Source: Candidatus Eiseniibacteriota bacterium
GTDB taxonomy: Bacteria; Eisenbacteria; RBG-16-71-46
Direction: 5' to 3'
Length of the DNA stretch: 64,000 nucleotides
Assembly (NCBI GenBank): GCA_031364845.1
Contig: JANLWX010000028.1
Span: 5,346-69,345, forward strand
Positions 40,476 through 52,312 of the stretch are shown one piece after another. A program made the translations under genes and the position numbers. Under the pieces are notes generated by a model that searched no databases, was not told the DNA's origin, and saw nothing but the letters and a program-made list of their open reading frames with translations. The number at the start of each line of letters is the position of its first letter. Within the stretch, counting starts at the first letter, position 1.

Positions 40476-41072
40476 ATGAACCCCGAGCCGCGGCGTAAAG
40501 AACCTGTGGAGCCGGGCGACGAGACCGCACTCGTGGTCGCGGCGCAGGGTGGCGATGAGAGCGCGTTCGCGGAGATCGTGCGGCGCTATCAGCGTTCGGT
40601 GTACCGGGTTGCCTATGGCCTCACGCGCAGTCCGAGCGATGCGGACGACCTCGCGCAGGAGACGTTCGTGAGGGCGTGGCAGGCGTTCGGGCGCTTCCGG
40701 GCGGGCGAACCGCTGCATCCGTGGCTGAGCCGGATCTGCGTGAACCTCGCGTACTCGCTGTTTCGCCATCGCAAGCGACGGCCGGAGACTTCGATCGAGC
40801 CGCTCGTCGAGGCGGGCCAGCAATGGGCGGCAGTCGACGATCCCGAAGCCGAGGCGGCCGAACGCGAGAGTTCGTCGCAGCTCGAGGCGGCGCTCGCGGA
40901 GTTGTCGAGCGAGCATCAGGCGGTGCTCGTGTTGAGGGCGGTGGAAGATTTGTCGTATGACCAGATCGCGCAGACGCTCGGCGTGCCGATCGGAACCGTG
41001 ATGTCACGCCTGTCGCGCGCACGCGCCGAACTCAAGGCACGCCTCAAGGCGCGCACCGGGGAGAACGAATGA
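40476..41072 (+). CDS. ECF (group IV) sigma-70 factor
   Basis: Region 2 'SAFAEIVRRYQRSVYRVAYGLTRSPSDADDLAQETFVRAW'; region 4 'LSYDQIAQTLGVPIGTVMSRLSRAR'. Confidence 0.9.
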   Translation: MNPEPRRKEPVEPGDETALVVAAQGGDESAFAEIVRRYQRSVYRVAYGLTRSPSDADDLAQETFVRAWQAFGRFRAGEPLHPWLSRICVNLAYSLFRHRKRRPETSIEPLVEAGQQWAAVDDPEAEAAERESSSQLEAALAELSSEHQAVLVLRAVEDLSYDQIAQTLGVPIGTVMSRLSRARAELKARLKARTGENE

Positions 41073-42637
41073 AGCACCTCGACGAATCCGAACTCAGCGC
41101 GCTGCTGGACCGCGCGCTCGAGGATCGTGAACGGATGGAAGCCGACCGCCACCTCGCGCAGTGCGCGGAGTGCCGCGAGGCGTTCGCCGTGCTCGAGGCG
41201 CAGGACCGAGAGATCGCCACGCTATTGAAGCACGATCCGGGCGAGGCGTATTTCGCGACGTTCGCGAACCGCGTTCACGAACGCATCCGCGGTGAGGGCG
41301 TGGCGATCGATGATGTGTCCGAGTTGCCCGACAACGTGGTTCCCGTGGCGGCGCGCCGCGCGATCCCGCCTGCGCCCGAATCCCTGCTCGAGCGGCTCGG
41401 CCGCTGGTTCAGCGGACCCCGCCTCGCTTGGGCGGGGGCGGCGGTCGCCATGATCGTGGGTGCCGGTGTGGTGTTCCTCGTCGGCGACGAGAAGCCGGTG
41501 CGCACCATCGAAGACCGCACGATCGCCGCGCGCGCGCGACAGGTCGCGGAGCCCGCGCCGACCACGGCCGCCCCGTCGGCGCCCGAGGCGGCACGTGAGC
41601 TTGCCCCGCCACCTTCGACGGGCGCCCGTGAGAACGCGGCCTCCGACATGCGAGCTCTGGATACGCCGCCGATGGCGGGACTTCAGGCGCAGAAGTCTGA
41701 AGTCGCCGAAGAAGAACATTCTGCCGCGACCGATGAAGCGGCGTCATCGTCCGTCGCGAAAGCTTCCGCACCGCCTTCGGCGGCGCGGGTGATGGGACGC
41801 TCGCGCGAGGTGCGCCGCGAACAGGGCGAAGACGTTCCGGTTCAGGATGCGCGCGCGGCGGCGCCGGTCGCGCCGCCCACCGCCGGCAATCGCGCGGATG
41901 CTCAAGCATCGAAGATCCAGCGCATCAAGGAGCAGGCGCGCGCGATCGCGGGCGGAGCGCTCGAGTCGAAGAAGAAGCCGGGGGAAGTGACGTCGTTCGC
42001 CGCGCCGCCCGGCAGCACCGCGCTGGGACTGGAGCAGCCGGGTGCCGTGCGCGTGTGTGGAACCGTGCGCGATGCGAGCGGGCGCGCGATCTCGGGCGCT
42101 CGCGTCGCGGTCGCGGATCTCGGCACCAGCACGAACACGGGTGCGACCGGAAGCTTCTGCCTCGCGGTGCCTCCTGGAGAGCACACGGTGAGCGTGATGG
42201 CGGTCGGCTTCCGCGAAGTGCGCCGCTCGTTCCGCGTGGGCGCGGAAGCGGGCAATCAGGACTTCACGCTGACCGCGGTGTCGGTGCTGGGCGAAGCGGG
42301 CGGCGAAGCGGACGCCCCGTGGCCTCCGGCCGCCCGCGAGATCGCCGCTGCCGCCGAGCGCGCGAGCCGCGAAGCCGCGCGCCTGAACACCGCAGAAGCC
42401 CACGACCAGGCGGCCGCGCGCTGGCAGCAGGTCACGGAGTCGGTGAAGGTCGGCGCACCCGCGATTTCCGCGCGCCGTCATCTCGCCGATGCGCGCTATC
42501 GCGCGTGGCAACTCGATCCGTCCGCATCGCGCGAAGCGTCAGCGATGTCGGCGATCTCGTCCTACCTCGCCGCGGGCCCCGGCAGCGCCGAGCGCGAACG
42601 CGCGCAACGCCGCCTCGAAGAACTCCAGCGCCGCTAG
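41069..42637 (+). CDS. Anti-sigma factor (zf-HC2 'HLAQCAEC' N-terminus, one TM) with an extracytoplasmic carboxypeptidase-regulatory-like domain
   Basis: ATGA overlap with the sigma gene. 'HLAQCAECREAF', TM 'LAWAGAAVAMIVGAGVVFLV', 'VRVCGTVRDASGRAISGARVAVADLGTSTNTGATGSFCLAVPPGEHTVSVMAVGFREVRRSF'. Confidence 0.8.
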   Translation: MKHLDESELSALLDRALEDRERMEADRHLAQCAECREAFAVLEAQDREIATLLKHDPGEAYFATFANRVHERIRGEGVAIDDVSELPDNVVPVAARRAIPPAPESLLERLGRWFSGPRLAWAGAAVAMIVGAGVVFLVGDEKPVRTIEDRTIAARARQVAEPAPTTAAPSAPEAARELAPPPSTGARENAASDMRALDTPPMAGLQAQKSEVAEEEHSAATDEAASSSVAKASAPPSAARVMGRSREVRREQGEDVPVQDARAAAPVAPPTAGNRADAQASKIQRIKEQARAIAGGALESKKKPGEVTSFAAPPGSTALGLEQPGAVRVCGTVRDASGRAISGARVAVADLGTSTNTGATGSFCLAVPPGEHTVSVMAVGFREVRRSFRVGAEAGNQDFTLTAVSVLGEAGGEADAPWPPAAREIAAAAERASREAARLNTAEAHDQAAARWQQVTESVKVGAPAISARRHLADARYRAWQLDPSASREASAMSAISSYLAAGPGSAERERAQRRLEELQRR

Positions 42638-42752: not shown

Positions 42753-44732
42753 GTGGCCACCGAGATCGTTACGCCCCCCGAGTTGAAGCAAACCCCCGAA
42801 GAGATCGAGCGTCACTGGTTCGAGAACGTCTACGCCGGTGACCGCATGCCGCAGCTCACCCCGCGCGCCCTGATCATGGGGATGATGCTGGGTGCCGTGA
42901 TGTCGCTGTCGAACGTGTACGTCGGTCTCAAGGCGGGATGGGGGCTCGGGGTGGCGATCACCTCCAGCATCCTCGCGTTCGCGGCGTTCTCGACCATGCA
43001 CAAGCTGTTTCCCAAGCAATTTCCCGAGTTCAGCATCCTCGAGAACAACGCGATGGCGTCGTGCGCTTCGGCTGCCGGTTACATGACCGGTGCCGGGCTC
43101 GTGAACGCGATCCCCGCGCTGATGATGCTGCAGCCCGACGCGGTTCCCAGCATGTGGGTGCTGATGGTGTGGATCGGCGTGATCTCGTGGCTCGGGGTGT
43201 TCCTCGCGGTGCCCGCCAAGCGCCAGATGATCAACATCGAGCAGCTCAAGTTCCCCTCGGGGATCGCCGCAGCGACCACGCTGCGCACACTTCACAATGA
43301 AGGCGGGGGAGCGGCGGCCCGCCAGGCTCGCTCGCTCGGGTTCTCGGTCTTGTTCGGCGCGATCATCACGTGGTGCCGCGACGCTGAGTTCTCATGGTTG
43401 AATATCGTGAGGTGGGGCGAGAGTGGTTTCGGGTTCACGAAATTCGCAGCCCCCGCAACCTGGCCGTCGTGGCTCACGGCGGTCGTGTCGTGGATCCGGT
43501 ATCCCCATGTTCCCGCGACGTGGCTTCCGGGAGATTGGCTTCCGGGATGGTGGCACATCGGCAAGTACCGCATGCGCCAGGATCTCACCCTCGCCTTCGA
43601 AGGCTCGCTGCTGTTCGTGGCCGCGGGTGCGATCATGGGAATGCGCCAAGCGTGGAGCCTGTTGCTCGGCACCGTGATCAACTTCGGCATTCTCGCCCCG
43701 ATGATGATGGACGCTGGAGTGATTCCTGATGCCGGCGGCAGCGCGCTGCGGCGCATCTCGAGCTGGAGCCTGTGGATCGGCGTTCCGATGATGGTGACCT
43801 CGGGCCTGCTGCTGTTCATCGTGCAGTGGAAGACCGTGGCGCGCGCGTTCAGCACCATCACGAAGATCTTCGTGAAGCGCCACCCCGCCGGGGCCGAAGA
43901 TCCAATGGACCGGATCGAAGTGCCGGGCTCGTGGTTCATCGGCGGTATGGTCGTGCTCGGAACGGCGACCGTGATTCTCGGGGAGCTGTTCTTCCACATC
44001 CACTGGTGGATGGGCATCATCGCGGTGCTGATGACGTTCCTGCTGGTGGTGGTCGCGGGGCGCGCGACCGGCGAGACCGACATCACGCCGACCGGTCCGC
44101 TCAGCAAGATCACGCAACTCACTTTCGGAGCACTCGCCCCCGGCAACATCACCACGAATCTCATGACCGCGAACATCACGGCCGGCGCGTGCAGCCACGC
44201 CGGCGATCTGTTGACCGATCTCAAGAGCGGCTATCTGCTCGGCGCCAAGCCGCGCCAGCAATTCGTCGCCCAGTTCTTCGGCGTGCTGATCGGCACGATT
44301 GTCGTGGTGCCCGTGTTCTTCGTCCTGATCCCGAACGCTTCGGTCCTCGGCACCGACCAGTGGCCCGCACCGGCCGCCCAGGTGTGGCGCGGAGTGGCCG
44401 AGTTGCTCGCGAAAGGCGTGGGGGCGCTCCATCCGACCGCGCGCGTCGGGCTTTTGATCGGCGCGCTCGCCGGCATCGTGCTCGCGCTGCTCGAGCTGCG
44501 ATTCCCGAAGCAGAAGAAGTGGATCCCGTCGCCGACCGGGCTCGGGCTCGCGTTCACGATCACCGCCTACTACTCGATCTCGATGTTCATCGGCGCGCTG
44601 CTCGCGGCGGCGATCATGCGGATGAACAAGAAGGCCGGCGAGGAGTACATCGTGCCGGTGGCTTCGGGGATCATTGCCGGCGAGAGCCTGATGGGTGTTG
44701 CGATCGCGCTGCTCTTCATCCTGGTGCCCTAA
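42753..44732 (+). CDS. OPT-family oligopeptide transporter
   Basis: GTG 42753 is the first start after an in-frame TAG; ATG 42846 is an alternative. About 16 TM segments; 'LTPRALIMGMMLGAVMSLSNVYVGLKAGWG' is an OPT signature. Confidence 0.85.
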   Translation: MATEIVTPPELKQTPEEIERHWFENVYAGDRMPQLTPRALIMGMMLGAVMSLSNVYVGLKAGWGLGVAITSSILAFAAFSTMHKLFPKQFPEFSILENNAMASCASAAGYMTGAGLVNAIPALMMLQPDAVPSMWVLMVWIGVISWLGVFLAVPAKRQMINIEQLKFPSGIAAATTLRTLHNEGGGAAARQARSLGFSVLFGAIITWCRDAEFSWLNIVRWGESGFGFTKFAAPATWPSWLTAVVSWIRYPHVPATWLPGDWLPGWWHIGKYRMRQDLTLAFEGSLLFVAAGAIMGMRQAWSLLLGTVINFGILAPMMMDAGVIPDAGGSALRRISSWSLWIGVPMMVTSGLLLFIVQWKTVARAFSTITKIFVKRHPAGAEDPMDRIEVPGSWFIGGMVVLGTATVILGELFFHIHWWMGIIAVLMTFLLVVVAGRATGETDITPTGPLSKITQLTFGALAPGNITTNLMTANITAGACSHAGDLLTDLKSGYLLGAKPRQQFVAQFFGVLIGTIVVVPVFFVLIPNASVLGTDQWPAPAAQVWRGVAELLAKGVGALHPTARVGLLIGALAGIVLALLELRFPKQKKWIPSPTGLGLAFTITAYYSISMFIGALLAAAIMRMNKKAGEEYIVPVASGIIAGESLMGVAIALLFILVP

Positions 44733-44813
44733 CCGCGGCGCCCGCGAAGCGGGCGTCGCAGGCCTTCCTGCGATCATGGCGAAGGCGTTTCCCTCCAACT
44801 CCGACCCCCCAAC

Positions 44814-44849
44814 GCAACGCGCCGGGCGAAAATCCGCCCGGCGCGTTGC
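44814..44849 (+). terminator. Perfect 15-bp GC-rich hairpin ~80 nt downstream of the OPT transporter stop (U-tract-less terminator or REP-like element)
   Basis: 'gcaacgcgccgggcg aaaatc cgcccggcgcgttgc': the arms are exact reverse complements. Confidence 0.35.
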
Positions 44850-44944
44850 ATGTCAACTCCATGCCCGAACGGGCCGATGACTCCGGATATCCCCCATAGG
44901 CGGGGATACCGAGTTTCGAGCCCGTTTTCGCATGGAGGTGTCGG

Positions 44945-46246
44945 TTGAGAACGCACGCCCAGCCCCCCGTTGTTCGCCCGTCACGCTCCGCCATGGTCGC
45001 GCTGTGCGTGCTCGCGTGCATCACGGCGGCGGTGCCCGCGTTCGCGGCGAAGAAGAAGAGCGCCGCGGCTGATCCGACGCCCGGGAACATCTCCATGGCC
45101 TCGGTGCCGTCGCGCGGTGACGACGGGGCGCTCCCCGATCTCGATCCCGCGGAGCAGGCGCTATGGCAGCGGCTGTGTTTCCGCGTCGAGGACGCCTTCG
45201 ACAGCACCCGCGGCGGATTCGTGAGCAAGAACGGCATCCTCGACGAGAGCGCAATCGACGTCGCGTTCCTGCTCGGACCGCGCGATCGCCAGGATCGCTG
45301 GAACGGCTACGGCGTGTACACGACCCAGTGGATGCTCGGCCTCGAAGACAGCATCGGCGGCGGGTTCTTCATGCGCCATGAAGTCGTCGCGGGCGGCGGG
45401 CAGTTCGAGCGGCCGACGCTGATCAACGCGCGGCGTCTCGAGAACCTGATCGATGCGTGGGAGCGCACCAACGACACGCGCTACTGGGTGTCGGCGGTGC
45501 GGCTGCTCGAATTCGCCGAGCGCAACGTCGTCGATGGGCGCGGTGGATTCACCTCCGATCCGGTCGGGGACCAGGATCTGGTGCCGCAGGTGAACGGTGT
45601 CGCGATCCGCGCGTGGCTCAAGTGGTGGGCCGCCGGGCGCGATCCCAAGCGCCGCGACTTCGCGCTGCGCAGCATCGACCGCTTGTGGCAGAGCGCGTGG
45701 AGCGACAGCGCCGGATTTCTGCGCGCGAATTCGTTCGGCGAGCCGATCGCATGGCCGCAGCTGAGCGATCAGACCGAGATGGGCCGCGCGCTGGTCATGA
45801 GCGCACAGCTCGCCGGACGCCGTGGCGATCTCGAGCGCGCGAAGAAGGTCGCCGACCTGATGCTCGCGAACTTCGCCGACGATCGCGGCACGTTCCGCTC
45901 GGAAGCCATGGGCCGCCCGGGCAGGCTGCGGCGCGCTCCGGGCCGCGTGCCGCGCGAGAACGCGCGCGCGGCCCTGTTCCTGTGCGAGTTGGCGCACGTC
46001 GCGCGCGCTCCGAAATACTTCGAAGCCGCGCGGTGCGTGTGGCGCGCCTATGCCAAGGATCTCGAGAAGACCAAGCTCGAAGCCGCCGACTGGGTGCTCG
46101 CGATGGACGCGGCGATCTCGCCCGTGTTCCCCAGGCGCCCCTCCGAGACCGCGAAGCCCGCGGACAAGGCCAAGTCGCCGCGCACCAACGGCAAGACGCG
46201 CATGCGTTCTCCGGAGACGAAGATCGGAGCGAGCGGGCAGCGCTGA
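44945..46246 (+). CDS. Hypothetical secreted protein ((alpha/alpha)6 / N-acylglucosamine-epimerase-like). Its 3' end lies inside the left direct repeat of the downstream island
   Basis: TTG 44945 with GGAGG 6 nt upstream; signal '..MVALCVLACITAAVPAFA'. 433 aa, no family assigned. Confidence 0.6.
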   Translation: MRTHAQPPVVRPSRSAMVALCVLACITAAVPAFAAKKKSAAADPTPGNISMASVPSRGDDGALPDLDPAEQALWQRLCFRVEDAFDSTRGGFVSKNGILDESAIDVAFLLGPRDRQDRWNGYGVYTTQWMLGLEDSIGGGFFMRHEVVAGGGQFERPTLINARRLENLIDAWERTNDTRYWVSAVRLLEFAERNVVDGRGGFTSDPVGDQDLVPQVNGVAIRAWLKWWAAGRDPKRRDFALRSIDRLWQSAWSDSAGFLRANSFGEPIAWPQLSDQTEMGRALVMSAQLAGRRGDLERAKKVADLMLANFADDRGTFRSEAMGRPGRLRRAPGRVPRENARAALFLCELAHVARAPKYFEAARCVWRAYAKDLEKTKLEAADWVLAMDAAISPVFPRRPSETAKPADKAKSPRTNGKTRMRSPETKIGASGQR

Positions 46247-46283
46247 ACTTCGCGCCATCGGCGCGAACTCTTGTGCGATCGAA
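46193..46283. repeat. Left copy of a ~90-bp imperfect direct repeat (3' end of gene 44945-46246 plus ~35 bp downstream)
   Basis: 'aagacgcgcatgcgttctccggagacgaagatcggagcgagcgggcagcgctgaacttcgcgccatcggcgcgaactcttgtgcgatcg' is ~80% identical to 51102-51192, including a 30-bp core 'cagcgctgaacttc[g/t]cgccatcggcgcgaa'. Confidence 0.65.
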
Positions 46284-46465
46284 GACCCGAGGGAGCGCGG
46301 ATATTTGATCAGTCCGCGCTCCGAGGTGTCCCTGACTGCGAGCCCGGGCTCTATATGTGCTCAGCCGCCAACATGCCTTCAATGGCTCCCACCTCCGCAA
46401 CACCATGCTCCCACCGAAGTGAAGATAGAACTTCACGCCCCTCGTGTTTTCTGATTGCAAATAAA

Positions 46466-46477
46466 GGGGGGGGGGGG
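46466..46477. repeat. Homopolymeric G12 tract (candidate slipped-strand phase-variation site)
   Basis: 'ataaaGGGGGGGGGGGGcgtaacg', ~50 bp upstream of GTG 46529 at the 5' edge of the island gene array. Confidence 0.85.
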
Positions 46478-46528
46478 CGTAACGTGGTGCGCGGCTAGTG
46501 TGAAACACACACTGCCCTACCATCTGGT

Positions 46529-46843
46529 TTGGTGGAGGAGCCCTCCGTGGAACGCGAGGTCGCAACGTCCAGCGAGCACAGACACGTCACGTTCTCATTG
46601 GAATCAGCGCTCGAAGCTGCCCAGCCGGGTGCTACCATCGACATCCCTGCGGGCGAGTACTACGCGAAACCTGGCGGGTGGCTCATTACGAAGAGCATCA
46701 CGCTCCTCGGGCAGGCGACAGCGGGCGGCGCACTTGGAGTGACGGTTCTAACTAAAGGCGCGCCTGCGTTTGTGATCGCCCCGGGAACTACTGACGTGAT
46801 CGTCATGAGCGTCTCATTTGCGGACTGCTCGCCGCCGGCCTGA
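46529..46843 (+). pseudogene. Right-handed beta-helix (pectate-lyase-fold) N-terminal fragment, 104 codons; likely a gene remnant or small domain protein
   Basis: 'ALEAAQPGATIDIPAGEYYAKPGGWLITKSITLLGQ' carries the same 'PG.TI.IP.G.Y....L.I.....I.G' module found twice in 47878-50439, but the ORF stops after 104 aa. Confidence 0.3.
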
Positions 46844-46936
46844 GCTGCTTCTACCTGCGATCGCATCAAGGCAGTGGGCGCCGGTCGCGTGTTCTATGAC
46901 TTGCAATCAAATCGATCCATCCAAGCGAGGTGCATC

Positions 46937-47839
46937 ATGCTCCGCACGCTTCTTTCGAGTCTCGTTCTGTATGCCACTCTGGTCGGAGCCCCCGCGTCGG
47001 CGCTTACGATCAACGTCGACGGCCTCGGTCCCGAAGGCGGCTATGGTGCGGCGCGCCGCGTGCCCCAGACATGCAACACTTCGGCGGGCAACAACCCCTC
47101 AGGTGGCGACAACCGTCACGCGATGGGGTCCGAGCTGAACGTCAGCGCTGCGGCCATCCTCAACGCGACGGTGTATGCGATGTATACGGGAAACCTCCAG
47201 AGCAACTTCACCAACCTCGAAGTATTCATCGACTGCATCGCCGGCGGCCAGAACACGTTGCGGGGCGACAACGCCATGGTTCCGCTCAATGGATTGAACC
47301 GCATGGCAGGTTTGACGTTCGATGCGGACTTTGAACCGGACTACTACATCACCATGAACTGCGGGGACTCGGCGGGAACTTACAGGTTCTCCGGACACTT
47401 CGTTACCCTGCCGACCTCAGGCGGAGGTGTCAGCACATACCTAGGGTCTACAGATGCAGCAATCACCGGGAGCGGTAATTCGCTCGGCATTCAGTTCGCG
47501 ATTCAGAATGGCAATGCTTCGGGCGTAGTTGCTGGATGCAGTCCGGCAGTCCTCTTGAACAATACTAGTCCGACTGGCGTCGAGATCGGCGTGCCACTTT
47601 CCGCAATCGGCAATCCCGGCGGATGCATCAAGGTGTGCGCGTTTATCAACCGACCCGCGCACGACTTCATCTTCAATCAGTTTATGGAGCCGCTTCCCGC
47701 GGGATCATGTGATCTCGGCGATCCCTCCACCGTATCCCTCGCGTCGATCGCGGGAGACCAGTTCTATGTGGCCTGCGAGGAACCGCCCACGCCCGCCGTG
47801 CGCGCCACTTGGGGCAAGGTAAAGGTGCTGTACAGGTAG
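46937..47839 (+). CDS. Hypothetical secreted protein (island cargo)
   Basis: Start MLRTLLSSLVLYATLVGAPASA (signal) with GAGG upstream. Gly/Asn/Ser-rich, several Cys, no family assigned. Lower GC. Confidence 0.6.
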   Translation: MLRTLLSSLVLYATLVGAPASALTINVDGLGPEGGYGAARRVPQTCNTSAGNNPSGGDNRHAMGSELNVSAAAILNATVYAMYTGNLQSNFTNLEVFIDCIAGGQNTLRGDNAMVPLNGLNRMAGLTFDADFEPDYYITMNCGDSAGTYRFSGHFVTLPTSGGGVSTYLGSTDAAITGSGNSLGIQFAIQNGNASGVVAGCSPAVLLNNTSPTGVEIGVPLSAIGNPGGCIKVCAFINRPAHDFIFNQFMEPLPAGSCDLGDPSTVSLASIAGDQFYVACEEPPTPAVRATWGKVKVLYR

Positions 47840-47877
47840 CCTCAGAGGTCAGGTCTTGTGGATCGAGGGGGATTTTC

Positions 47878-50439
47878 ATGGCCGTGAATCTGACGTGGAA
47901 GGATGTCTCGCAGTCGCCGTACAGCGGCTCGATCGAGAAGGCGATCAATGGCCAGGCGAGTCCATTCATCGCCCCCGTGCAGCCTGGTGACACGATCTAT
48001 GTCCCCGGCGGGAACTACAACATCGCGAACCCACTGCTCATCAACCAACCCAACGTCAGGATTGTTGGCGATGGCATGGACAAGACCAACATCATTTGCC
48101 CGTCCGGGTCATCGATTGCGGTATTCGATGTCACGGAGTCGTTCGCGACCCTTGAGGGATTCACGATCACGCAGGCCGATGCCGTCACCTCGGGGACCGG
48201 GGTGGGTGTGAGGATCGGTTCCAGCGCCACGTACATCCAGCAGACTACCCTCAGGCACATCAAGATCAAGTTCATGCCAAGCTACGCGCTATTCATTCCT
48301 GGCGGGTCCGAAGGGTTCTCGAACCAGCCCGTGAATGAGACCGTGATCGAGAACGCCATCTTGCACAACTCCCAGTCGGACGCCATCGTGTTCATCGGAA
48401 AAGGCAGTACGCTCGCCAATTTCAGAAACTGCAACATCAGCGCATACCACGTTCCCGGGGTATTGGCGGTCCAGATCATGAATGCGTCGCACATCACTTT
48501 CGATTCGTGTGAGGGCAATCCGGCGCCTGACAAGTATTGGCTGGACTTTGAGGTAGATCCGAACGACGCCGCCCCCACATCTGGCGGAGAGGCGCTTTCC
48601 ATCATTAACTGCGACTTGGAAGTTAATCGTGAAGAACCCGGAGCTGTGCGGCATTCCAGCTATTTCATTCACGCGAAGCGCGTGTCACATGTCTTGATTC
48701 AGAGCACGCTACTGTATTGGGCGCAGAAGGGTGTCTGGCTGGAAGAATGTAACAACGCCATTGTCCAGGCCAATGTGTTCATCGACATACGCGCGAATGG
48801 TAATACGGGCGCAAATCCTGCGGCATCGTCCTTGACGCTCACAGCATGCAAGGACACAGCGATCATCGGTTCGTGTTGGCAGAACACGGACTATAACACT
48901 GACTGGATTCCGGATGGCACGGTCACGGGCGAGAGACTCCCGTTGCCTTTCGAAGAGCTGAGCGGCACGACGGGGACGACGGTTTTGGAGCAGGGTGTCG
49001 CGCTACTCCCGACCTATGGTGCCGTGGCGTCCAGTTTGCCCAACAACGTAAAGACGGGGCTGCTGCACCCTGGCATGCTGGCTTACGATCTTAAGCGTCG
49101 CCTGCAATCGTGGGACGGCGCGAAGTGGGTGAGGGCGGTCACGGGCTACGAGCTCTTCATCGCGACCGACTACGCGGACATCCAGCTCGCCGTCGATGCG
49201 GCCAGCGCCGCGGCTACGGGCGGGGTTGTCTATGTCCCGGGGGCGACTTACAACGAGTCCTCGACGCCGAAGTACAGCGGCAATCTGATCGTGAACGCAC
49301 CGGGCAAGACGATTCGAATCATCGGCGACGGAGCGGGGAGCACAATTCTGCAGGCACCGTCGACAGGCCCCAACAACGACAAACCGATGCTGAGTCTTCG
49401 GTCCGATGACATCGCGATTGAAGGCATGACGTTCGATGGCTTCAATCAGGTCAGCACCGCCGCGGGCATCGTCATCGGTAACGCAGGTCAGGCAGTGTTC
49501 CGTCCACGTATGACCGACGTGACCGTAAGGAACAGTGCGGGATGGTCGATCTATGCACTCGGTTCGGAGGCCGCGGCGAGCTCCCACTACGGCCTGTTCG
49601 AACGCGTGCGCTGCACGGGCAATCGGAGCGCTGCCACCGGAGGCGTGTGGCTGGCGGTCGGGTGCTCGACCCACGTGTTCCGGGACTGCGTCGTGGAACA
49701 GTTCAAGGGCTACGGGGTGTTCATGGACCAAGTTGACGGTGCCGCACTGCTCGAGTGCCGGATCTTCGATGCCAGCGATGACACGCAGCCCTACTTGGGA
49801 CTGAACAACTCCCTGAACATCATCGTCACCGCGCTCAAGTGCCGAAACCAGGCACCTCCGACGCAAACGCAGAATGAGCGCTTCATCAAACTCACCGGCG
49901 AGAATCGCAGCATCAGCATCATTGCGCCGAAGCTCTATCGGGACCAGACCTCGAACCCGAACGGAAGCGATGTCAATAGCGGTGGGGGGATCGCTCGCTC
50001 CGTCATGATCCTGAGTCCTGAGATGAGGGTGCAAGGAGCCGCGACGGGAACAGACCACATCAAGATCGGGAGTTCATCGGAGTGCTTCATCATCGGCGGC
50101 GTGGTCTCGGCCTCCGGGGCCGCTACCCCATTTCCGGTCATGGAGATCGAGAGCCCGGCATCCCGCTTTGCGGTCGCGGGTCGGGCAACGATCGACTTCG
50201 GCAATGGGGCGCAGTCGGCGACCGTGAGCGTGTCCGATCTCCGCGTTGCCACGAACTCTCGAATCATGGCCGCGATGGCCTATGCCCCAACGCTGAATCG
50301 CGACCTGGACGAATTGGAGATGGACCACTTTGAAGTGCACGCGGGCAATGTCACCAACGGCGTGGGATTTGAGATCGTGGCCGACTGTCTGACAGGCTAT
50401 GGGCACGGCACTTACTTCGTCGATTACATCAGGAGCTGA
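47878..50439 (+). CDS. Tandem right-handed beta-helix protein (pectin-lyase-fold / tailspike- or polysaccharide-depolymerase-like), 853 aa, no signal peptide
   Basis: GAGGGGG then ATG 47878. Two paralogous halves: 'IAPVQPGDTIYVPGGNYNIANPLLINQPNVRIVGDGMDKTNIICPSGSS' and 'AAATGGVVYVPGATYNESSTPKYSGNLIVNAPGKTIRIIGDGAGSTILQAPS'. Repeated 'N..I..N.F.D' turns. Confidence 0.7.
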   Translation: MAVNLTWKDVSQSPYSGSIEKAINGQASPFIAPVQPGDTIYVPGGNYNIANPLLINQPNVRIVGDGMDKTNIICPSGSSIAVFDVTESFATLEGFTITQADAVTSGTGVGVRIGSSATYIQQTTLRHIKIKFMPSYALFIPGGSEGFSNQPVNETVIENAILHNSQSDAIVFIGKGSTLANFRNCNISAYHVPGVLAVQIMNASHITFDSCEGNPAPDKYWLDFEVDPNDAAPTSGGEALSIINCDLEVNREEPGAVRHSSYFIHAKRVSHVLIQSTLLYWAQKGVWLEECNNAIVQANVFIDIRANGNTGANPAASSLTLTACKDTAIIGSCWQNTDYNTDWIPDGTVTGERLPLPFEELSGTTGTTVLEQGVALLPTYGAVASSLPNNVKTGLLHPGMLAYDLKRRLQSWDGAKWVRAVTGYELFIATDYADIQLAVDAASAAATGGVVYVPGATYNESSTPKYSGNLIVNAPGKTIRIIGDGAGSTILQAPSTGPNNDKPMLSLRSDDIAIEGMTFDGFNQVSTAAGIVIGNAGQAVFRPRMTDVTVRNSAGWSIYALGSEAAASSHYGLFERVRCTGNRSAATGGVWLAVGCSTHVFRDCVVEQFKGYGVFMDQVDGAALLECRIFDASDDTQPYLGLNNSLNIIVTALKCRNQAPPTQTQNERFIKLTGENRSISIIAPKLYRDQTSNPNGSDVNSGGGIARSVMILSPEMRVQGAATGTDHIKIGSSSECFIIGGVVSASGAATPFPVMEIESPASRFAVAGRATIDFGNGAQSATVSVSDLRVATNSRIMAAMAYAPTLNRDLDELEMDHFEVHAGNVTNGVGFEIVADCLTGYGHGTYFVDYIRS

Positions 50440-50440
50440 C

Positions 50441-51070
50441 ATGGCGATCATCAAGTCCGGAGCGACTACCGACCAACTCACGGTTGACCCTACCAGCAAG
50501 GCGGCCCGCGTCACGCTGTATGACCCAGCGGGACGGTCACTGGCGGCGGAATCCAAGGCAACCTACTTCGCCGCCGGCACGTTCACGCCGCCGGCGACCC
50601 CTACGGATATGGTGACGATCTTCGGTAGCGCAACGCGGACGGTGCGTGTTGTGGCGTTCATCATCACCACCACGAACACCGCAGCCGGATCTCAACAGTT
50701 TTCATTAATCAAGCGCACGACTGCGAATTCTGGCGGCACGCTTGTCGCGGCGACTGCCGTGACCGCGGATGTTGCCGATAGCGCTGCGACAGCCACCGTG
50801 GGTCACTACACTGCCAACCCCTCCGGGCTGGGCGCTGCGGCTGGAACCATCAATATCAGGCGCGCCGCCTCGCCTGCAGCGGTGCCGGCGAGTTTCGCGG
50901 GCGTCGTGCGGGATGCGGGTGTGGACATGCTTGACGTTGGAGCCAATACGTCGCTCAACAAGATCGCAGTGTTGAACGGCACGGGACAGGGATTGTGCCT
51001 CAACTTCGGAGGCGCGGCATTAGTTGCAGGGCAGACGCATGCGTACCAAGTCGTTTGGACTGAGGAATAG
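50441..51070 (+). CDS. Hypothetical protein (Ala/Thr-rich), coupled to the beta-helix gene
   Basis: AGGAG 5 nt upstream of ATG 50441, 2 nt after the upstream stop. 210 aa, no family assigned. Confidence 0.5.
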   Translation: MAIIKSGATTDQLTVDPTSKAARVTLYDPAGRSLAAESKATYFAAGTFTPPATPTDMVTIFGSATRTVRVVAFIITTTNTAAGSQQFSLIKRTTANSGGTLVAATAVTADVADSAATATVGHYTANPSGLGAAAGTINIRRAASPAAVPASFAGVVRDAGVDMLDVGANTSLNKIAVLNGTGQGLCLNFGGAALVAGQTHAYQVVWTEE

Positions 51071-51101
51071 AGCAGACGATTGCTTGTCCGGACCAAAACA
51101 C

Positions 51102-51192
51102 AAGGCGCGCATGAGCGCCCCGGAGACGAGATCGGAGCCAGAGGCCAGCGCTGAACTTCTCGCCATCGGCGCGAAGCGGTGTGCGACGCGCG
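51102..51192. repeat. Right copy of the ~90-bp direct repeat (degenerate duplicate of the gene 44945-46246 3' end)
   Basis: 'aaggcgcgcatgagcgccccggagacgagatcggagccagaggccagcgctgaacttctcgccatcggcgcgaagcggtgtgcgacgcg'. It would translate as ..SAPETRSEPEASAELLAIGAKR, against ..RSPETKIGASGQR* at the left copy. Confidence 0.65.
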
Positions 51193-51358
51193 AGCGCAGG
51201 GAAACGGCCACACGGACCCTCACCCTGCGCTCCTTGCATGCGGCGGACCGGCTATCGTCAACGACCCCGCGCCCGCCCCGCCCGTTGACCGCGCCCCGCC
51301 AAAACTCCTACCGTAGCGCTTCGTGTTCCACCCCACGCGTCCCTTCGAGGAATTCCCC

Positions 51359-52312
51359 ATGCGCCGAGTTCTCGTGACCGGAGTCACCGGTTTTGCCGGC
51401 AGCCATCTGGTCGATTACATGCTCACGCGCGGCGACTGCGAGATCTATGGGACGCAGCGGTGGCGCAGCCGCACGGAGAACATCGAACACGTGCGCGACA
51501 AGATCTCGCTGATCGAGTGCGACCTGCGCGATGCCTCGTCCACGCGCGACATGCTCGAAAAGGTGCGGCCGGATTTCATCTTTCACCTGGCGGCGCAGTC
51601 GTTCGTGCCGACGTCGTGGAATGCGCCGAGCGAATCGCTGACCACCAACGTGATCGGTCAGGTGAACATCTTCGAGGCGGTGCGCCGCATCGGCCTGCCG
51701 TGCCGCATCCAGCTTGCGTGCTCGAGCGAAGAATACGGGATGGTGTTTCCGGACGAGACGCCGATCAAGGAAACCAATCCCCTGCGGCCTTTGTCGCCGT
51801 ACGCGGTCAGCAAGGTCGCGCAGGACATGCTCGGCTACCAGTACTGGATGTCGTGGAAGCTCGACAGCGTGCGCACGCGCGGCTTCAATCATGAAGGCCC
51901 GCGGCGCGGGCCGGTGTTCGTGGCGTCGGACTTCGCGAAGCAGATCGCCGACATCGAGAAGGGCCTGCGCCCGCCGGTGGTCCACGTCGGCAATCTCGAT
52001 GCGCTGCGCGACTTCACCGATGTGCGTGACATGGTGCGCGGCTACTGGCTGGCGCTCGAGAAGTGCGAGCCGGGCGAGGTCTACAACATCTGCAGCGGCA
52101 AGGCGTGGAAGATCGGCGACATGCTCGAGCATTTGCTGGGGTTGTCGAAGGTGAAGATCGAAGTACGCCAGGATCCCGCGCGCCTGCGCCCGAGCGACGT
52201 GCCGATTCTGCTCGGCGACTACTCCAAGTTCGCGAAAGCGACGGGCTGGGCGCCGACGATTCCGTTCGAGCAGACGCTCGCCGACATGCTGGAGTACTGG
52301 CGGAATCGATAG
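51359..52312 (+). CDS. NAD-dependent epimerase/dehydratase, GDP-6-deoxy-D-mannose reductase (Rmd)-like
   Basis: 'VLVTGVTGFAGSHLVDYML', 'FHLAAQSFVPTSW', 'SSEEYG', 'SPYAVSKVA' (YxxxK). Confidence 0.8.
   Translation: MRRVLVTGVTGFAGSHLVDYMLTRGDCEIYGTQRWRSRTENIEHVRDKISLIECDLRDASSTRDMLEKVRPDFIFHLAAQSFVPTSWNAPSESLTTNVIGQVNIFEAVRRIGLPCRIQLACSSEEYGMVFPDETPIKETNPLRPLSPYAVSKVAQDMLGYQYWMSWKLDSVRTRGFNHEGPRRGPVFVASDFAKQIADIEKGLRPPVVHVGNLDALRDFTDVRDMVRGYWLALEKCEPGEVYNICSGKAWKIGDMLEHLLGLSKVKIEVRQDPARLRPSDVPILLGDYSKFAKATGWAPTIPFEQTLADMLEYWRNR

Follow-up and report, generated by a model that had tools for sequence, protein, structure and literature searches.

A Pure Homopolymeric G:C Tract between Promoter-like Hexamers as a Candidate Slipped-Strand Switch on an Acquired Gene Cassette of an Uncultivated Bacterium

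Introduction

To our knowledge, nearly all established cases of phase variation driven by homopolymers come from pathogens adapted to a host, for example Neisseria, Haemophilus, Campylobacter, Bordetella, Treponema and Mycobacterium. The case most similar to the one described here is that of porA in N. meningitidis and tp0126 in T. pallidum, in which a poly-G run is placed between the -35 and -10 elements and its length sets both the spacing of these elements and transcription, with 17 nt as the optimal distance (PMC7864442). A second group is formed by the Bordetella fim promoters, which contain C-stretches of 10-18 nt (up to 22) whose length differs between related genomes; in B. parapertussis, interrupted versions (C6TC3 and C9TC8) have been described (PMC1891110), and these are presumably fixed. 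Finally, transcription of the T. pallidum tprE/G/J/L genes is modulated by a poly-G run that precedes the start site and has been retained in several paralogous promoters (PMC7864442).

The tract reported here was found in a 64 kb stretch of DNA, analysed in full and denoted as the window. It resembles those of porA and tp0126 in that a run of G makes up most of what would be the spacer between the -35 and -10 elements, upstream of an exported or surface protein gene, predicted as such in our case. However, measured length variation and reporter data are available for those two genes, whereas the tract in the window is a candidate recognised from its sequence. In addition, porA and tp0126 belong to host-adapted pathogens, whereas the window comes from an uncultivated, high-GC and apparently soil-dwelling lineage; here the spacer is 19-20 nt long, one relative uses C instead of G, and there is no sequence homology with either system. 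Regarding fim2, fim3 and fimX of Bordetella, the likeness lies in the high-GC genome and in a pure C/G run of similar length within a promoter (a putative one in our case), which in Bordetella precedes a gene for a surface structure. In contrast, the Bordetella promoters have a 'fim box' and depend on BvgA, while the flanks of the present tract bear, by inspection, no evident relation to them, and none of the genes that follow it is related to those of fimbrial subunits. Moreover, and unlike the B. parapertussis tracts, all those compared here are uninterrupted. The tprE/G/J/L promoters share with our locus the poly-G near the promoter and the keeping of the tract in several promoters, but in that system runs of 8 G or fewer are permissive and the position of the tract relative to the -35 and -10 elements is different, whereas the tracts considered here span 12-14 nt. 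The architecture is one already known from promoters of pathogens, and what is notable in this case is the setting, an uncultivated soil lineage, and the apparent travelling of the tract with a mobile cassette.

The G12 Tract

A first-pass annotation of the window had called attention to a run of 12 guanines, and its existence was confirmed: positions 46466-46477 correspond exactly to GGGGGGGGGGGG. In the whole 64 kb window, the next longest homopolymer measures 6 nt, and the number of G runs of at least 12 nt expected in a sequence of this kind is 0.09 when bases are taken as independent, falling to about 0.004 when the window is described by a first-order Markov model. When the window and about 103 kb of fetched loci were considered together (about 167 kb), no homopolymer of at least 8 nt was found besides the tracts dealt with in this work. 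The G12 run is, in consequence, highly non-random. It is also reproduced in a Logan assembly of run SRR20217195 (L001, 7481 nt), which is 100% identical to positions 44133-51613 of the window, G12 included, indicating that the tract is not the product of one assembler, with the proviso that both assemblies may derive from the same reads. The features of the locus are collected in Table 1.

Table 1. Features of the tract locus, of the gene array and of the promoter scan (window coordinates), and tract loci compared.
Feature	Position	Strand	Description
Left direct repeat	46192..46278	+	Authentic 3' terminus of the 433-aa gene with its stop codon (46244-46246), GC-rich hairpin
T-rich block, conserved, upstream of the -35-like hexamer	46443..46454	+	blastn with L006; manual comparison of three flanks
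-35-like hexamer TTGCAA	46455..46460	+	Kept as TTGTAA in L006 and TTGCAA in L003
G12 homopolymer (C12 on minus strand)	46466..46477	+	12 of the 19 bases between two promoter-like hexamers
-10-like hexamer TAACGT (TAnnnT class)	46480..46485	+	TAACAT in L006, TAAACT in L003
Shine-Dalgarno-like GGAGGA	46534..46539	+	7 nt before GTG 46547; GGAGG also precedes the L003 and L006 starts
First gene, 98-aa protein similar to an N-terminal beta-helix cap	46547..46843	+	Homologs of 97-105 aa
300-aa protein, signal-peptide-like N-terminus, predicted beta-rich fold	46937..47839	+	Gene call, structure prediction
853-aa protein, right-handed beta-helix/pectate-lyase-like domains	47878..50439	+	PF13229, PF12708; L001 gene call
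209-aa protein, last gene of the array	50441..51070	+	No family match
Right direct repeat	51101..51186	+	83-86% identical to left repeat; frameshifted remnant of the 433-aa gene 3' end
Scan match TTGCGA, spacer 18, TAGCTT	29316	+	Without tract
Scan match TTGCAA, spacer 19, TAACGT	46455	+	G12 site
Scan match TTGACC, spacer 18, TACCGT	51285	+	gmd; without tract
Scan match TTGACC, spacer 18, TACTCT	53421	+	Dehydrogenase; without tract
Window tract locus			Left block ttttctgaTTGCAAataaa; G12; right block cgTAACgt; ~69 nt from tract end to start codon
L006 tract locus			Left block ttttctccTTGTAAataaaat; G13; right block TAACat; 64 nt from tract end to start codon
L003 and L004 tract loci			Left block gtttgtgcTTGCAAaacag; C14; right block TAAACt; 59 nt from tract end to start codon

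An Acquired Insert Carrying Four Genes

The tract had also been placed at the head of the gene array of a genomic island, and this stands, as a block of lower GC begins there, which the closest reference genome lacks at its syntenic locus. The array is composed of four genes, contained in an insert of about 4.9 kb with a GC content of 56-62%, versus about 67% in the surroundings. It is preceded by genes encoding an OPT-family transporter (42753-44732) and a 433-aa protein of no known family, the latter ending at 46246, and it is followed, from position 51323, by a set of sugar-nucleotide genes (GDP-mannose dehydratase-like, epimerase, UDP-glucose dehydrogenase-like and dTDP-sugar enzymes). The sole relative among species-representative genomes, a Candidatus Rokuibacteriota MAG (L002), displays the same order of the transporter, the 433-aa gene (70% identity) and the dehydratase/epimerase pair, with about 1.95 kb of unrelated DNA between the flanking genes, compared to about 5.1 kb in the window. 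The insert is bracketed by an imperfect direct repeat, a copy of the final ~18 codons of the 433-aa gene together with its stop codon and hairpin. Thus, the locus shows repeats copying the 3' end of the target gene, its base composition is deviant and L002 has no such block at the syntenic position, and on these grounds we consider that the island is real. No recombinase or integrase domain was found in the four array genes, and the insert may represent a decayed or a trans-mobilised element. Scans of the whole window for tRNAs and for Rfam families yielded nothing, which argues that the insert is not located at a tRNA gene and that the tract belongs to no known RNA.

Some details concerning the first gene of the array had to be corrected. 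Its start had been assigned to a GTG at 46529, about 50 bp from the tract; position 46529 is actually a TTG, and the likely start is the GTG at 46547, in view of the GGAGGA sequence that precedes it, the gene call in L001 and an N-terminus common to the homologs. With this start, the tract would end some 69-70 nt before the start codon, so that the distance becomes about 70 nt. The homologs of the encoded protein share 57-74% identity and a long invariant core, and the predicted 98-aa ORF is a real gene and not a fragment. The protein gives weak, sub-threshold matches to beta-helix and NosD families, and has the appearance of a beta-helix N-terminal cap that stands on its own. The alternative that this small ORF could be a truncated copy or a silent cassette of the large beta-helix gene was discarded, given that only a generic 13-residue motif is common to both. 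The family is tiny: five or six members (P0042-P0046) exist among 5.8 billion clustered proteins, all of them in the same type of cassette. A viral scan with the small-ORF profile gave no matches, and the only yield of the corresponding metagenome scan, L008, turned out to be a false relative.

The structural model of the 300-aa protein (pLDDT 86.5, pTM 0.85) predicts a beta-rich fold, which found no meaningful match when compared with the PDB (best E = 0.012, TM at most 0.28). Around 40 homologs of this protein were recovered, some with PEP-CTERM sorting domains, and most are encoded by stand-alone genes in other phyla. Searches of the four array proteins against Pfam, PHROGs, NCBIfam and PADLOC revealed no characterised family beyond the beta-helix domains. 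The earlier suggestion that the array genes are related to the cell surface or to polysaccharides can, therefore, be retained only in a loose sense: it agrees with the signal-peptide-like N-terminus, the PEP-CTERM homologs, the beta-helix domains and the neighbouring sugar-nucleotide genes, but none of the proteins falls into a characterised family that would substantiate it.

Homologous Tracts in Related Cassettes

The comparison with related strains proposed in the first-pass annotation was carried out on the fetched contigs that carry homologs of the 98-aa gene. In every one of these contigs that reaches far enough upstream, representing three lineages, a pure homopolymer occupies the same position: G12 in the window, G13 in L006 and C14 in L003 and L004. 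The length of the tract therefore varies between related genomes, which is the comparative evidence employed for the Bordetella tracts (PMC1891110). All the tracts are uninterrupted despite the 57-74% protein identity between lineages, and all fall among the uninterrupted G/C homopolymers of about 8 nt or more that are regarded as susceptible to slippage. Within both pairs of near-identical assemblies, the consensus lengths are equal (G12 in both the window and L001, and C14 in both L003 and L004, the latter two coming from two samples and differing by 3 mismatches in 2766 positions), although consensus lengths of two such pairs neither show nor exclude minority lengths.

As can be seen, the gene strand carries G in two lineages (the window and L006) and C in the third (L003/L004). 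That either base can be present on this strand speaks against an RNA motif tied to one strand, and also against a G-quadruplex of fixed strand and a sequence-specific protein site; judging from this comparison, the swap would favour selection for the homopolymer character itself. On the other hand, the distant homologs of the 300-aa protein, used as negative controls (L012-L023), are stand-alone genes, with neither the small ORF nor the tract.

The genes found upstream of the cassette are different in each lineage: the 433-aa gene in the window, the 3' end of an MFS-like gene in L003 and, in L006, divergently oriented genes for a methyltransferase and a glycosyltransferase. By blastn, positions 2441-2710 of L006 correspond to 46443-46714 of the window, so that homology begins 12 nt before the TTGCAA hexamer and the T-rich block located there marks the left edge of the shared module. 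As the flanking contexts differ and homology starts at 46443, the shared unit comprises the promoter-like block, the tract and the genes, and these elements apparently move together.

Promoter-like Hexamers and Their Spacing

The tract is flanked by two hexamers reminiscent of -35 and -10 elements, in the arrangement TTGCAA-N19-TAACGT in the window, TTGTAA-N20-TAACAT in L006 and TTGCAA-N19-TAAACT in L003/L004. While the tract is 12, 13 and 14 nt long, the spacer measures 19, 20 and 19 nt, respectively. The distance between hexamers is, thus, steadier than the length of the tract, suggesting that the spacing is constrained. The hexamers are only modestly similar to the consensus (4/6 and 3-4/6). 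A stricter promoter and terminator scan of positions 45800-47200 gave no matches, because it allowed only spacers of 16-18 nt.

A scan for TTGnnn (with at least 4 of 6 positions matching TTGACA) followed, after 15-21 nt, by TAnnnT produced 7 matches on both strands of the window, that is, about 0.008 per 150 nt, and exactly one match in each of the L006 and L003 tract loci. The four matches on the plus strand are all intergenic, 45-110 nt upstream of gene starts. Three of these have no tract and spacers of 18 nt, and a further sequence of this kind, TTGACC-N17-TACGGT, is found in L002 (position 4680) upstream of gmd. Since the tract-free spacers are 17-18 nt long, the predicted tract promoters exceed the local norm by 1-2 bases, a difference that one or two steps of slippage would bridge. 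The predicted hexamers flanking the tract can be grouped with those of the other likely promoters of the genome. The spacers of 19-20 nt in all three lineages could mean either that all of them are in the low state or that the promoter depends on an activator and operates at this distance.

Apart from the tract, a pattern of the form TTG(A/C)C(C/G/A)-N17-18-TAnnnT recurs upstream of genes (29316, 51285 and 53421 in the window, and 4680 in L002). This could provide a first promoter consensus for this uncultivated lineage, so that a small set of predicted promoters (TTGnCn-N18-TAnnnT) becomes defined for a phylum without known experimental promoter data.

A Proposed Switch and Its Alternatives

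It is an observed fact that the tract exists, that it is located between conserved hexamers and that it has remained pure and in place across diverged lineages. From this, we infer that the hexamers constitute a promoter, that the tract slips at a useful rate and that its length sets expression. In the model that we favour, G12 would account for most of the spacer in a sigma-70-type promoter (TTGCAA-N19-TAACGT), which would drive the four-gene array on the horizontally acquired insert of about 4.9 kb. A pure G:C run of 12-14 bp would be prone to slipped-strand mispairing, the gain or loss of a base in it would alter the spacing between the -35 and -10 elements and, as a result, transcription, and the tract would in this way act as a heritable and reversible switch, or as a rheostat, for the array. 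We estimate the probability of this reading at roughly 60%. It is preferred on the basis of the position of a pure tract between elements that appear sensitive to spacing, the G/C swap, the uninterrupted tracts and the unremarkable leader RNA, although the comparison includes three lineages only. Of the two mechanisms initially put forward for the tract, a change in promoter strength agrees with its location between conserved -35-like and -10-like hexamers and with its purity at 12-14 nt in three lineages, whereas a switch of reading frame is excluded, as an in-frame TAG (46496-46498) intervenes before the gene starts and the frame running through the tract is not conserved. The frameshift switch was rejected on the same basis when considered as a candidate in its own right: the tract lies outside the gene, and the ORF that includes it (46455-46742) shows no conservation.

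Several other explanations were considered. The run might be a static structural spacer, rigid and difficult to melt, as would be suitable for an activator-dependent promoter with a spacing of 19-20 nt, and thus be functional without any switching. The maintenance of the distance between hexamers at 19-20 nt in all three lineages and the agreement in tract length between near-identical assemblies are in keeping with this notion. However, a spacer of this type does not need to be a pure homopolymer, and the purity over 12-14 nt, together with the G/C swap, is better explained by selection on the repeat; furthermore, G:C runs of 12-14 nt slip appreciably in the organisms studied (PMC1891110, PMC7864442), so that variation would be hard to avoid, and we regard a static role as rather unlikely. 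A location of the tract at, or just after, the transcription start, with effects through reiterative transcription or the 5' leader, seems improbable. It could result from a sigma-54-like element (GG-N10-GC) ending in TTGCA, or else from a -10 element in the A-rich block, and it is true that TTGCA resembles the -12 element of sigma-54 promoters, that L003 has an in-register GG-N10-GC and that TAAAAT immediately precedes the tract in L006. Against it, the match to a -24 element is weak (TG in the window), the -12 element is GT in L006, the A-rich block has no -35 partner, and the conserved TAAC right after the tract is left without explanation. In addition, G-type and C-type leader RNAs would be wholly different from each other, and their folds are not significant: the stability of the predicted leaders is not above that of shuffled controls (z = -0.45, +2.23 and +0.79), and no structure is common to them. 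Readings of the left block as a sigma-54 or an ECF-type promoter, made by eye, were likewise discarded as weak, since they do not account for the conserved TAAC.

The two remaining explanations deny any regulatory role to the tract. It might be a neutral relic of cassette movement, such as the end or junction of a mobile module, and in this regard the shared module starts just 12-23 nt upstream of the tract, occurs in three different genomic contexts and, in the window, is part of an insert bracketed by a direct repeat. Yet a hypermutable run without function would be expected to shrink or to become interrupted at 57-74% protein identity, whereas none of the tracts is interrupted; the tract is flanked by conserved hexamers and internal to the module, away from its edge, and no matching repeat is seen at the right end of the insert, which makes this explanation very improbable. 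Long G runs are a known class of sequencing artefact, and the tract could derive from the poly-G calls of two-colour Illumina chemistry or from a chimeric join. The contigs L005 and L007, which start 25-30 nt downstream of the expected tract site, might be seen as a sign of it, but the tract is reproduced by a second assembler (L001), homologous tracts appear in assemblies of other samples, including a run of C on the gene strand, and the flanks on both sides are homologous across lineages, which is incompatible with a join. An artefact is, consequently, largely refuted and merits hardly any credence, even if the length of the tract could still be off by one.

The promoter-spacer switch would make this tract a clear candidate for homopolymer phase variation in an uncultivated soil phylum, carried by a mobile cassette, and it offers a concrete locus at which mixtures of tract lengths could be looked for in public read sets, such as SRR20217195 for the strain of the window and SRR23617218 for that of L003 and L005. 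A conserved tract that swaps G for C on such a cassette would suggest that the same strategy operates in environmental communities. A broader and tentative proposal, which we consider possible but on the doubtful side, is that a mobile four-gene cassette of free-living, uncultivated Rokuibacteriota-like soil bacteria carries its own hypermutable promoter, with the homopolymer being kept or rebuilt, as G or as C, wherever the cassette lands. If this were true, contingency-locus switching would be a portable and selected property outside host-associated pathogens, perhaps serving the evasion of phages that recognise surface glycan structures.

Additional Observations

About 4 kb upstream of the tract (40476-42637), the window contains a gene for an ECF-type sigma factor followed by one for a putative anti-sigma protein of 522 aa; no link between this pair and the predicted tract promoter was found. 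In L011, the small gene is truncated at its 5' end and fused behind the stop codon of another gene, and the promoter block and the tract are deleted. Difficulties in assembling the homopolymer may explain why the L005 and L007 contigs, which come from other assemblies, start 25-30 nt beyond the point where the tract would be; this does not agree with a simple length-variant bubble and has not been counted as evidence. Lastly, positions 1-50 of L004 diverge completely from positions 275-324 of L003, about 120 nt upstream of the tract, in contigs that are otherwise 99.9% identical, a point of divergence that represents either a rearrangement or a chimeric contig end.
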